A stretch of DNA of 62,346 nucleotides, the filler included, from Collodictyon triciliatum (lineage: Eukaryota), in NCBI GenBank assembly GCA_043381765.1. It is 11 parts of 11 records of this genome, joined end to end, with 100 filler letters (N's around TTAATTAATTAA, not from the genome) between each part and the next. Parts side by side here need not be neighbours in the genome. Positions count along the whole stretch, not along the records: positions 39,739 to 46,256 come from JBHJMP010004405.1; 10 more parts are not named here. One strand, given 5' to 3'. The notes below the pieces were generated by a model. That model worked only from the letters and a program-made list of their open reading frames with translations, did no database searches and was not told the DNA's origin. The position numbers and the translations under genes were made by a program. Within the stretch, counting starts at the first letter, position 1. Every line of letters starts with the position of its first letter. Shown here piece by piece: positions 40,438 to 45,290 of this stretch.

Positions 40438-43400
40438 ATGGTTTATAAAGTTTCAGGTTATTTTGATTTTTCTATTTTGTTTTTCGTGGTCGATTATAAT
40501 GAAGTACGATTTGAATGAGAAAGGAATAAAATGAGGGACTTTCATGCTTACCCGCGATTTAGATTCGACTCGTGCCCCCGTTCATCGCTAATATAAAAAG
40601 CCTGCGAAGCGGGTTACTTATCCAAGGATATCCCGTCAGCAACATACCAGAGAACGTCATCAGGAATGGGTCTGAGGATGTATTTGATCTTTTGAGAAAC
40701 TCTATGAATGGAATTGTAAAATGGACTCAAGGTAGACTCTTGTTACTTGGTGAGGGAGAATCTGGGAAAACAACCCTCACAAAATCCATCACGCAAAATG
40801 ACTTGTTTTTTCGTGATACAACAAACCAGGAGAGTAAGCGTACCGATGGTATTGCACGTGTCGACATCGACAAATCAACAATGGGGGGACTTTTTGATAC
40901 AAAAATATCAATTCAAATATGGGATTTTGGAGGGCAAGAAGAATTTCAAGTAACACACCCATTCTTTTTGTCATCAGGAGCTCTTATTTTAATTCTTTAC
41001 AGACTTGACCAAAACAAGGACAAAAATAACCTTGGCCGCTGGGTCAAAATGCTGGATGACTTTGTTCCTGGCTCGACTATCATAATTGCCGGAACTCACC
41101 AAGATTGCGAAATTGAACAATACAAACAACAGATGCAGAGTGAAATCGAACGAATCAAGAGGGAAAACGAACAGAAGCCTGACAAAAAAGCTCGCCATAT
41201 CTTCTTCAACACAGAGTTAAGAGTAAGCAACAAAAGCGGAACAAAAATATCTGGTTTGAAAAGAGTGATACATGGAGGGATGATGAAGCTTGACAACATG
41301 AATAAGGATGTTCCGAAAACATACATCGGTTTGAAAGACTACCTTGATTCAAAAGGTCAGTCCGTAAAGTATGAACAAATACAAGAAGTATACACTTTTG
41401 CAGAGAAGCGGTTGAAAATGGACAGAGATGGATGTGAAAGTGCTCTTCGATTCCTCCACGACCTTGGCTCAGTTGTTTGGTATTCGTCCTTAGAAAATGT
41501 CAAGGGCTTAGTATTTTTAGACCCACTCTTCCTCATCAACATATTTCGCAGTGTCTTCAGCTTCAAAGGAATAGGAGAGGGTACAAATGGCATCATTCTG
41601 TTAAGCAAGCTAAAAGACCGAATCAAACAAGAATTAAAAACAGGATTAGATGAACAAGTATTCGGCACAATTCTTCGAATTTTTGACCATTTTGGTCTTG
41701 GAATTCAGTTTAATAGAGAATGTATCGCGTTTCCTTCACTACTAGATGATTGTCAAAATCTCAAGGCGTTTTGGAATGAACAGCAAGAATCTGAATGTAT
41801 TGCTGAATCCTCTGTGGAAATAACCACCCATGGAGAGGCCCAACTTTCTGATAAAAGTAATATCAGCATACAAGCGCTGCGTTTGACAAAAGAGGTGCAG
41901 ACTGGAGTGCAATACGATGACCAATTTTTTAGGGATGTAGCTTTCATACACCTTAATGCTTCTTACATAATAGGAACAGATGAAATACAACTGCTTCCAG
42001 GAAACGAATTCATTATTTTGTATCAAATCCACCAAAACAATATTTTAGTCAATATTAGAAAATATGAGAATAGTTTCGACAGGAGTGAGAGAATTGTCAG
42101 GATTTTCGACATCCTTTGCACATTTCTTAAGCAAATATCATCCATTCGATCCAATTTCGTTAAAGCATATCGATTTGAATGCCCTGAGTGTCATCTATAT
42201 GGTTTAACCGGCTATATTCAAACATCACCAGAGGTAAAAGACTCAGAGTTGAAGCTGTGCACCAAGAAGCATCAACCCGAAGCAAGTGCCGTAAAGCAAG
42301 GGCGTGTTTATCTAGAACAAGGTCTTTCACCCAAATATACAAACTTATAACTTATATAAATGAAGAGATATTAATTTGATATAAAAAGGATTTTTTTTTG
42401 AAAGTTAGAAATTGATTTTTATAGGAATATCCAAGAGATTTGCCTCGGTAATGAAACAAAAAAAGACAAAGAGGGTACGATGCGCTGAAAGCACACTCGT
42501 GCTTGGCTCGATCGACCAAATATTAAAGGAGCAATTGATCGATGAAAAAATAGAATTATCAGAATATCTCGCAAAAGGGGCATATGGACGAGTTTATACA
42601 ACACCAGCATTTAAAGGAAAAAGTGCTGTTGTCAAAATCCAAACAATCAAAGAGAGCGGAACACATACTCTCAGCGATGTAATTCAATCTCTAATTTTTG
42701 AGAGTAAGTTTTTATATGAATGCAAGGAATGTGAAAATGTAGTGAAATTGCTTGGTGTTCATCGTAAAGAGGACGACTTTTACATGGTTATGGAGTATGC
42801 AGGTTTTTCGTTGAAATCGATTTTAGAGAAGAAAAACGTCAAGCCTACCCTATCCCAGATTGTTTCCTACACAAGGCAATTATGTAATGGTCTTAGTTTT
42901 ATGCATTCCAAAAACTTATACCATGAAGATTTGAAGGCTGAAAATATTATGATTTTGGATGAAACTATAAAAATTGTGGACTTTGGAATGGTGAGCCGTC
43001 GTGGCCTTGAAAAAGTTGGGTCCGATTTACCTACGAGATTTGGTGAATGGAAGCAAGATGGAACTTCCAACTGGCAAGCGCCTGAAATTTATGAAGTTTC
43101 ATGCAAACCTCATTATGATGATCTCATTATGTATGGTGAGGACCAAGTTAATCAAGGACATCGTGGAGAACCCAGTAATGTGTATGCTTTGGGAATGCTC
43201 GTTTGGTACATGTTTTCTGGAATTGAGCCATTTATGAATCATACACAAGCACAGAGTTTTGTTATCAGGGGGTTAAGACCCGAAATACCTAAATTAACAC
43301 CTGAAGAGATGGCCCATCTCATCAGAGCATGCTGGAGGCAAAACTACAAGCTTCGTCCTTCCTTAAGTCGGATATGTACGTACCTAGACGAATTGAAATG

Positions 43401-45290
43401 GAGTGAACTGGGCATATCTAAAGACAAGATGAATCAATTACTTCCAATTAAATACGCACCTTTAGTAGATATGTACAGGGGAGAATTTGTGGAATGGCTT
43501 CGAGACCATGGGTTTTCAAAATTGAGTGATATAATTTCAGACCAAAGTTGGGAACGATTTGAGGAAATTCAAGATAAACTTAATGAAAAAACGATGATTG
43601 AATTATACCACATATCCACAAGTGACATTTATGCATTTGTTGAACTATCAAATCAGGAGGAAGAGAGCAGCAGTGTCTCCGAGGTTCCAAAAAGAAAAGT
43701 TAAAGACCTGTTTTATTCCCAATTAGTTGCTCATTTACAGAGAAAGCAGGATATATTATCGTCTCGATTGCTTAAGAAGGTGATGGCTTTAAAGCTTAAT
43801 GGGAATACAATATCCAAGCTTGATCAACGAGATATATACACGAATCATTCTCTTTCAGAGCAGGAAATTTTATTTGCATCCCAATTCGTCAATCATTACT
43901 TGCAGTCAAATGAGACTCAGACTCGCTCACAAGTAATAAGCCCTGATATCCTACAAGAACCGGAGGAAATACATCACATGAAAGCGCAATACATCCCTTT
44001 CAGTAATGGAATCCAACACGCAACTATACTGTGGATTGGTGACATGGAGCTATCCCAAACTCCTAATTGGCTCATCCATCTGAAAGGATTGAGAAAACTC
44101 TTCATTCATTCCAACAACGTAATATTTTCACATTTTTTTAAAAATACTGTGTCCTTTGATTTTTAACTAACTTGATATTTGATGGCAGTATATATCATTC
44201 CCAGAACCATGTTTCTCCTTGACAAACTTGTTGTACTTGGACCTCTCAGAAAATAAAGTGAGCTGGATTTTTTACTGTTGGTTTCCTTTGATTTTTTTAT
44301 TTATTCTTTTAAAGGGAGTAATTAATTGCAAGAAATAATTAAATTTATTACGTAACAATATTCATTTAATTTTTTTTCTTGATTTACAGATATCATCGTT
44401 ACCTGCTCGAGTTTCATGTTTGTCGGCTCTTACGTACTTGAATGTTTCTCAAAATCGGGTATCTTCACTGCCCCCAGAAATATCGTGTTTGGCGTGTCTT
44501 ACGCACTTTGGCATTTGTCAAAATCGATTGTCATCACTGCCCCTCGAAATATCATGTTTGACAGCTCTTACGCACTTGAATGTTTCTCAAAATCGGGTAT
44601 CTTCACTGCCCCCAGAAATATCGTGTTTGGCGTGTCTTACGCACTTTGGCATTTGTCAAAATCGATTATCATCACTTCCTCAAGAAATATCGTGTTTGAC
44701 AGGTCTTACGCACTTGAATGTATCTCAAAATCAATTATCATCAATCCCTCCAGAAATGTCTTTTTTGATGGGTCTTACGCACTTGAATGTTTCTCAAAAC
44801 CGATTGTCATCACTCCCTCCAGAAATATCGTGTTTGACGGGTCTTGCCCACTTTGATATTTCTCAAAACCAATTGTCATTAATTCCAGCAAATATATCGT
44901 GTTTGAAGAATCTTGCTCACTTTGATATCCATGATAATGAGGTTTGCATGATTCATATAAGATTAAAAGTTTTCAATTCAATCAGCTCACTAAAAGTCTC
45001 AAACATGCAGATTCAAGTACTTCCAGCTGGAATTACTTCTCTGACTAGACTAAGTCAGCTGCACTTATACGGCAAAGCAGGACAAACTGACACGAAAAGA
45101 TTGCCTCGTGGTATCACAGCCCTCCCTTGTTGGAAAGAGCGGAGTAATCCATATCATGAGCACATTCACAAACTGGAGCTCTATGACCACGTAAAATATT
45201 ACTCATAAGCTCTTTCACATAATATGGTGTTTTTTTTTTTTTGGCTTTTTTTTGAAAAGTGCCACTTTGTATCAGAGATGCCTTAAATTA
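40438..45290 (+). CDS. Roco protein kinase: Roc GTPase - COR - TKL-like kinase - SAM-like x2 - C-terminal LRR array
   Basis: Roc: GEGESGKTT, RTDGI, WDFGGQEEFQVTHPFF, GTHQD, VSNKSG. COR: VPKTY, ALRFLHDLGSV, VFLDP. Intron 42322-42424 joins the two long ORFs in frame. Kinase: AKGAYG, VVK, HEDLKAEN, DFG, APE. LRR exons: 44189-44257, 44390-44941, 45011-45190. The start (40438) and the final exon are tentative. Confidence 0.9.
44390..44941 (+). repeat. Coding tandem array of 8 x 69-nt LRR units with a near-identical 138-nt A-B dimer
   Basis: 552 nt = 8 x 69. The stretch TTGAATGTTTCTCAAAATCGGGTATCTTCACTGCCCCCAGAAATATCGTGTTTGGCGTGTCTTACGCACTTTGGCATTTGTCAAAATCGATT recurs 138 nt later. Confidence 0.95.

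Follow-up and report, generated by a model that had tools for sequence, protein, structure and literature searches.

A Roco kinase gene of Collodictyon triciliatum with leucine-rich repeats behind the kinase

Roco proteins, among them LRRK2 of Parkinson's disease, are studied as kinases under GTPase control, with repeat domains that fold back over the kinase. A gene on the + strand of a 62,346-nucleotide (nt) stretch of DNA from Collodictyon triciliatum (GenBank assembly GCA_043381765.1; hereafter the window) raises the question of where in the chain such repeats may stand. The initial annotation described it as a Roco kinase of rearranged architecture, in which the leucine-rich repeat (LRR) array had moved from the front of the protein to behind the kinase, with an ALG14 gene starting head-to-head just upstream and leaving no room for an N-terminal array. 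We find that the LRR array behind the Roco kinase is real and marks an unusual Roco variant, while the front of the gene is better explained as incomplete. Our preferred reading, to which we give a probability of about 0.55, is a single multi-exon gene for a native LRR-Roc-COR-kinase-linker-LRR protein, the 5′ exons of which are lacking from the contig. A Roco protein with an LRR solenoid after its kinase would be a useful comparison for repeat gating, whether the solenoid replaces a WD40 propeller or stands beside an N-terminal array.

Domain order and the array behind the kinase

Three long open frames lie on the + strand (40563-42350, 42409-44166, and 44339-45208), and the gene model drawn through them with predicted splices (Table 1), which includes the first exon proposed by the initial annotation, encodes 1463 residues. 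Pfam places Roc, COR-A, a protein kinase, and an LRR array along the model in that order. The Roc domain covers residues 58-181 of the exon-2 translation (E = 1.9e-19, 70.5 bits against a cut-off of 27), and its P-loop (GEGESGKT), DFGGQ, and THQD motifs are intact, the last being a G4 motif that resembles the LRRK type. COR-A follows directly at residues 251-385 (E = 5e-11, 43.1 bits against a cut-off of 35.3), giving the Roc-COR pair with intact nucleotide-binding motifs that characterizes the Roco family. Homology to relatives, in a search with exon 2, reaches residue 484-544, and COR-B (PF25497) was not detected by Pfam on exon-2 residues 380-576 even at E up to 10. Solved structures that match the Roc-COR sequence in the PDB are the M. 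barkeri Roco protein (4wnr), the C. tepidum Roco protein, LRRK2 (E ∼5e-16), and LRRK1 (E = 2e-11). The kinase (PK_Tyr_Ser-Thr, residues 48-325 of the exon-3 translation, E = 2.4e-37) lies C-terminal of COR, as in group-2 Roco proteins, and is reached through a predicted phase-0 splice. Its VVK, HEDLKAEN, DFG, and APE motifs are intact, with HED instead of HRD, from which it is predicted to be a tyrosine kinase-like (TKL-like), non-RD, and apparently active enzyme. The Pfam scans of the gene product gave no ANK, ARM, or WD40 repeats and no STAND ATPase (NACHT or NB-ARC).

The kinase exon reads into the first LRRs without a stop; kinase and array are therefore in one reading frame, which requires no hypothetical join, and the array very probably belongs to the same protein as the Roco kinase. 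Pfam matches to LRR_8, LRR_4, and LRR_14 in the array range from E = 4.9e-22 (LRR_8 in exon 5) to 8e-21. The repeats keep a strict 23-residue register over ∼12-13 rows, such as LTHLNVSQNRLSSLPPEISC, from residue 1133 to ∼1431 of the model, which puts the count at ∼12 where about 11 had been reported. This register carries on over two phase-0 introns, the first of which (intron 3) splits one LRR, while the small exon that follows it holds exactly one. At the DNA level, Tandem Repeats Finder resolves two tandem periods, one of 69 nt with 7.4 copies (score 527) and a double unit of 138 nt with 3.3 copies and 87% matches; over the two periods, matches run from 78 to 87%. Matches this high mean that the units were duplicated recently, which in turn suggests a binding surface that evolves fast.

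Within exon 5, a further 69-nt segment (44942-45010, + strand) has the GT...AG ends and phase 0 of an intron, the length of exactly one LRR, and encodes the sole poor row of the array; from its sequence it could be one more intron or a unit that is kept only optionally. This segment and the 69-nt exon 4 resemble the layout of brown-algal ROCO genes, which carry one LRR per exon according to the available portion of PMC11378527.

The linker between kinase and array gave less. Two SAM-like segments had been proposed there, and neither is confirmed. The first (43486-43605) matches SAM_2 below threshold (E = 0.11, 13.1 bits against a cut-off of 20.5) and reaches only 0.82-0.83 against Atlas SAM clusters, a lead only, while the second (LKLNGNTISKL) is a weak LRR_8 match (E = 0.0081). 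Domain mapping thus yielded Roc, COR-A, kinase, and LRRs by Pfam, while the single-sequence AlphaFold2 model of the linker was unusable (mean predicted local distance difference test score, pLDDT, 36.7), and a SAM domain in the linker is at this point a lead from sequence. By its features, the kinase-linker piece comes closest to Atlas Pkinase+LRR clusters (0.93-0.97).

As the initial annotation held, the order is unusual for a Roco protein. A HMMER search with exon 2 against 1.84 billion representatives returned 5791 matches at E up to 0.001, and the best 150 were examined with an LRR motif and a phmmer screen; the same motif picks up 9 rows in the window array and may miss other LRR types. 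At least two LRR motifs precede Roc in 123 of these 150 relatives. The kinase stands behind Roc-COR in 19, so that this part of the order is shared, while none of the 19 has at least three LRR motifs behind the kinase. One of the 150 (P0054) has eight LRR motifs behind the Roc-COR match. Pfam scans of 18 of the 150 agree: in the nine kinase-bearing proteins scanned, LRRs, Roc, and COR-A come ahead of the kinase, with COR-B as well in six, and a WD40-type β-propeller lies behind the kinase in P0029, P0038, and P0067, with a weaker one in P0091. The accessible text of a family review (PMC6337361) describes three Roco groups, two with LRRs before Roc and a third (DAPK1) without an LRR domain, and places LRRs only N-terminal of Roc. 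In the portion available, PMC11378527 describes brown-algal ROCOs as LRR-ROC-COR only. Literature searches on Roco C-terminal LRRs, which covered parts of the texts and not the figures or supplements where such an architecture could be shown, turned up no account of LRRs following the kinase of a Roco protein.

Could the frames instead belong to two or more genes, with no Roc-COR-kinase-LRR polypeptide at all? A Roc-COR gene might end at the TAA at 42348-42350 and a kinase-LRR gene begin at a Met in 42409-42460, or an LRR-only gene might begin at ∼43970. The frame of exon 2 does have its own stop, 58 nt before the frame of exon 3 opens, although this gap is too small for the T-rich intergenic spacers seen in the window, and a canonical phase-0 GT-AG intron (intron 2, Table 1) connects the two frames. 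Kinase-plus-LRR proteins without Roc are widespread (Atlas Pkinase + LRR_4 clusters, best score 0.97; LrrkA and LrrkB, in excerpts of PMC7003747), and the kinase is closer to RIPK1 than to the Roco kinases among the matches, yet exon 3 has no stop between kinase and LRRs and a kinase behind Roc-COR is the arrangement of the 19 relatives above. No transcript joins the exons. On balance, we consider separate genes very improbable.

The 5′ end of the gene

Whether an N-terminal array is truly absent depends on how far the window can be trusted upstream of exon 2. The window consists of contigs from a fragmented assembly (∼6.6 kb each), sorted by size and placed end to end, with the linker TTAATTAATTAA (twelve letters, with N runs on both sides) present 10 times at a spacing that drops steadily from 6626 to 6615 bases. 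Since it is a chain of separate contigs, neighborhood arguments are valid only inside one contig, which for the Roco gene is 39739-46257, and arguments that there is no room upstream are unsafe in a window built from small contigs. This contig begins in an (AAAGAC)n repeat and finishes in an A-rich simple repeat. Inside it, the reported head-to-head neighbor is present: an Alg14-like exon (Pfam E = 9.7e-6, 26.1 bits, just below the 27-bit cut-off; no match in a word-based protein search) has its ATG at the reverse complement of 40225-40227, 211 nt as assembled from the proposed Roco ATG at 40439. The spacer between them is T-rich, and its (T)nG tract is the contig's weakest link. Words of 17-25 letters from this tract recur at or near contig ends (6636, 13095, 26555, 39400, 46017-46083 at the end of the same contig, and 62295), reads are apparently cut at 40275-40356, and no matched contig bridges 39982-40560.

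Exon 2 opens with only ∼1.5 LRRs. In an alignment these fall on the final LRRs of relatives, and in the 14 relatives aligned the LRRs continue upstream of the position at which exon 2 starts. What precedes this position elsewhere can be seen in contigs of run X1, which match 40561-42210 (exon 2) at 91-98% identity. One of them (record 2, 1706 nt) is ∼98% identical to the window over 40561-41079, with 10 differences, and extends a further 1187 letters upstream of 40561, where the exon-2 acceptor lies. Translated by eye in frame, the last 30 of these letters read ...LQKLDISNNK, the first half of an LRR whose second half, IRLVPPFIANIKSL, opens exon 2. A second X1 contig (record 1) matches 39874-39981 and departs from the window exactly at the GTAAGC donor of ALG14. 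Because record 1 leaves at this donor, as record 2 does at the exon-2 acceptor, X1 behaves as spliced RNA. The peptides ISNNK and DISNN from the upstream exon of X1 occur in none of the six frames of the window, and the missing exon is therefore not on another of its contigs.

The first exon of the initial annotation is a poor substitute for this upstream sequence. Its 'VVDYNE' sits in T-rich sequence not covered by X1, the depth in bin 40472-40675 is wholly explained by X1 record 2 starting at 40561, and its last 30 nt agree with the X1 exon end at ∼9 of 30 positions (by eye), which is chance level. It is probably not the native 5′ end. Of the one or two LRR remnants that were said to precede Roc, those in exon 2 hold and the one in exon 1 is unsupported.

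Taken with the LRR motifs before Roc in 123 of 150 relatives, the in-frame LRR half upstream of exon 2 in X1 makes an architecture with LRRs at both ends the likelier one. It undermines the claim that the upstream side is too short for an N-terminal array, and leaves the idea of an array moved from front to back unsupported. The apparent lack of the array is somewhat more likely an artefact of the contig than not, and a biological absence is the less likely of the two, possible but doubtful. Under the preferred reading, either the 5′ LRR exons would lie past the end of the contig and an intron would enclose ALG14, or the assembly would be misjoined over the T-rich tract.

Several observations weigh against this reading. 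The ALG14 ATG does stand 211 nt from the proposed start as assembled, and T-rich tracts are also assembled through within other contigs, so the ALG14-Roco arrangement could be real. X1 comes from another organism or strain (91-98% identity), with 8 of 15 matched pieces only 90-95% alike; its contig could come from a paralog, and its classification as RNA is an automated guess. In the LRR immediately before Roc, the window has Tyr at a conserved Asn that X1 and 11 of the 14 aligned relatives retain, a change that would fit the decay of a stranded remnant. Of the exon-2 differences between window and X1, 16 are non-synonymous and 13 synonymous; among the 10 that fall in the first 519 nt, 9 are non-synonymous. 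An intron that holds ALG14 would be exceptional beside the gene's other predicted introns of 70-132 nt. Finally, the kinase-LRR and Roc-COR-kinase joins are predicted splices with no RNA link in this copy. The contigs matched to the window leave 39982-40560, the exon 2/3 junction, and the exon 3/4/5 junctions uncovered and so speak there for neither side. X1 and X3 pieces in the LRR region, with loose ends and odd joints (44559>44808, 44844>44804), were read as paralogous LRR genes and set aside.

In an alternative reading, the copy truly lacks an N-terminal array, a rearrangement or a 5′-truncated duplication having put the gene beside ALG14. It would be expressed from the shared T-rich spacer, through exon 1 at 40439 or from a Met at exon-2 residue 48, and the C-terminal LRRs would be its sole repeat domain, making it an intracellular receptor-kinase with a C-terminal sensor. 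The contig as assembled favors this, as do the lost Asn and the non-synonymous excess at the 5′ end of exon 2, and ∼1440 codons remain open despite 2-3% divergence from X1. The pieces at 90-95% identity suggest several related copies in organism A, of which the longer form in X1 may be a paralog, and a Roco kinase without LRRs, Dictyostelium Roco7, is described in excerpts of PMC7003747. Set against this, the X1 contig links exon 2, exactly at its acceptor, to the 1187 upstream letters, exon 1 resembles translated T-rich spacer, and the junction spans a tract that is found at or near contig ends elsewhere and is bridged by no matched contig. We regard this alternative as unlikely. Less likely again is its fullest form, in which the contig is correct and the gene encodes a reverse-order Roco receptor kinase, Roc-COR-kinase-(SAM-like)-LRR. 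If true, a C-terminal LRR sensor that evolves fast would be tied to a GTPase switch and a non-RD kinase, an NLR-like (nucleotide-binding LRR receptor) design reached independently on a Roco chassis, and this reverse-order Roco would belong to an expansion specific to Diphyllatea in which the other members combine Roc-COR with STAND ATPases.

The same missing 5′ exons might instead mark a young pseudogene, 5′-truncated, untranscribed, or decaying, with a full-length LRR-Roc-COR-kinase-LRR gene elsewhere. The overall non-synonymous/synonymous ratio against X1 is ∼0.4 (a rough estimate), the first 519 nt carry the non-synonymous excess given above, and no sample on record as RNA covers the copy at 99% or more. 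However, the ∼1440 codons of the four exons from exon 2 onward contain no stop or frameshift, and the splice sites and catalytic motifs are all intact, which argues against an old pseudogene. Derived states are also found on both lineages; at residue 84, for example, the basic residue common in relatives is kept in the window and not in X1. A pseudogene is thus very unlikely, and the native gene with unassembled 5′ exons remains our preferred reading.

Relatives, kinase lineage, and a possible mechanism

The eight best of the 5791 matches are all transcripts of Diphylleia rotans (EukProt EP00002; P0018-P0025; E = 2.5e-59 to 2.2e-32, 26-39% identity). They share with the window gene the Roc and COR-A type and the 'GNP..PP.NV..G' junction between LRRs and Roc. 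Unlike it, all eight have long N-terminal LRR arrays and lack both a kinase and C-terminal LRRs; the modules that follow COR are DUF4062 with an AAA_16/NPHP3_N-type ATPase, or PH. Together with the freshwater metagenome pieces noted below, these matches suggest that the gene comes from a freshwater protist related to Diphylleia. With TIR as a further partner, such LRR-Roc-COR combinations with a STAND-type ATPase or PH suggest a Roco expansion in CRuMs that is little described, specific to the lineage, and similar to a receptor repertoire.

P0054 also has an LRR array after a Roc-COR-effector unit. Roc, COR-A, and TIR each occur twice in it, with LRRs ahead of the first set and again between the two, a pattern that fits a doubled LRR-Roc-COR-TIR unit. 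P0054 so offers a precedent, in sequence, for the tandem multi-module protein of which the initial annotation thought the gene a possible remnant. In P0054, however, the second array precedes a second Roc-COR, whereas the window frame ends after its array and the remaining 1 kb of the contig holds no Roc. With no convincing + strand coding in 45209-46257, a second Roc module was rejected.

Compared with group-2 Roco kinases (LRRK1, LRRK2, and the Dictyostelium proteins; LRR-Roc-COR-kinase, often then WD40), the window gene shares Roc-COR followed by a TKL-type kinase but differs in having no ANK or ARM, WD40, or detected COR-B, in its LRRs behind the kinase, and in HED for HRD. The features of a metazoan LRRK1 or LRRK2 ortholog (ANK or ARM, WD40, and a kinase of the LRRK clade) are not found in it. 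The best solved match to the kinase is RIPK1 (77.9 bits), with no LRRK chain among the 60 best PDB matches, and the 19 Roco kinases among the relatives reach only 19-55 bits. Because of this difference, the kinase appears to lie outside the lineage of the LRRK and Dictyostelium Roco kinases, and its sequence suggests that it was not inherited from that lineage, which would fit an independent acquisition. Like the window protein, Dictyostelium LrrkA and LrrkB, described as cytosolic LRR kinases in excerpts of PMC7003747, and the Pkinase+LRR clusters of bacteria, diatoms, and oomycetes combine a kinase and an LRR array in one soluble polypeptide, but they do so without Roc-COR. The likeness to NLR and STAND receptors is confined to a switch domain followed by C-terminal LRRs, there being no NACHT or NB-ARC here.

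Closer relatives were not met in the other collections searched. A word-based protein search with exon 3 gave weak kinase matches only, and with exon-2 residues 1-175 four distant LRR-Roc-COR proteins, none near-identical; both the window protein and the X1 form are absent from that collection. Scans of Joint Genome Institute (JGI) metagenomes gave no match for exon-2 protein patterns or for an exact 30-mer from the start of exon 2.

Roc-COR acts as a gate on the kinase in LRRK2 and Dictyostelium Roco4, through changes that depend on GTP. By analogy, the protein would begin its catalytic part with a Roc GTPase and COR, the GTP-dependent changes of which would gate the kinase behind them, and continue through a linker of ∼210 residues into a C-terminal solenoid of ∼12 LRRs of 23 residues each. 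This solenoid may occupy the place taken by the WD40 propeller in P0029, P0038, and P0067, and could provide a surface for docking or autoinhibition and for the recognition of ligands or substrates.

Features of the locus and of the rest of the window

Table 1. Features of the Roco gene, its contig, and the window. Positions count along the whole window.
Feature	Position	Strand	Description
Exon 1 of the initial annotation	40439-40504	+	ATG, 22 codons, donor GTACGA; unsupported
Exon 2	40563-42290	+	576 codons; last ∼1.5 LRRs 40563-40650, Roc 40734-41105, COR-A 41313-41717, then tail at COR-B position
Intron 2, predicted	42291-42408	+	GTAAAG...TTAG, phase 0, 118 nt; from sequence and frame arithmetic
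Exon 3	42409-44118	+	570 codons; kinase 42550-43383, ∼210-residue linker, first LRRs from ∼44011
Intron between exons 3 and 4, predicted	44119-44188	+	Phase 0, GT-AG
Exon 4	44189-44257	+	69 nt, exactly one LRR (YISFPEPCFSLTNLLYLDLSENK); phase-0 introns on both sides
Intron between exons 4 and 5, predicted	44258-44389	+	Phase 0, GT-AG
Exon 5	44390-45208	+	Remaining LRR array to ∼45109, short tail, stop TAA 45206-45208
Alg14-like first exon	39874-40227	-	Head-to-head with the Roco gene; ends at canonical GTAAGC donor
T-rich low-complexity spacer	40228-40438		(T)nG tract 40281-40325
Simple-repeat stretches	39739-39843; 45990-46257; also 7214-7700, 10100-10620		
N-run/TTAATTAATTAA/N-run linkers	6574, 13200, 19825, 26446, 33066, 39683, 46301, 52916, 59531, 60955		∼6.62 kb apart

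Simple repeats of the types (AAAGAC)n, (A)nC/(T)nG, and 14-nt A-rich units are found at contig ends and in intergenic spacers, and appear to be the cause of the fragmentation of the assembly. On another contig, a long unbroken frame (35045-38725, + strand) encodes 1226 residues with no Pfam match at E up to 0.001. A different contig again carries the frame of an LRR gene (11657-12484, + strand), which has a Pro-rich N-terminus (MSMPLPPPPPAQ...) followed by ∼9 LRRs of the same 23-residue type as the Roco array (LRR_8, E = 7.4e-22). This gene probably runs on beyond a GT donor and could be the front of another Roco protein or of an LRR-only protein. Metagenome runs X2-X4, from freshwater, contain pieces 99-100% identical to the window.

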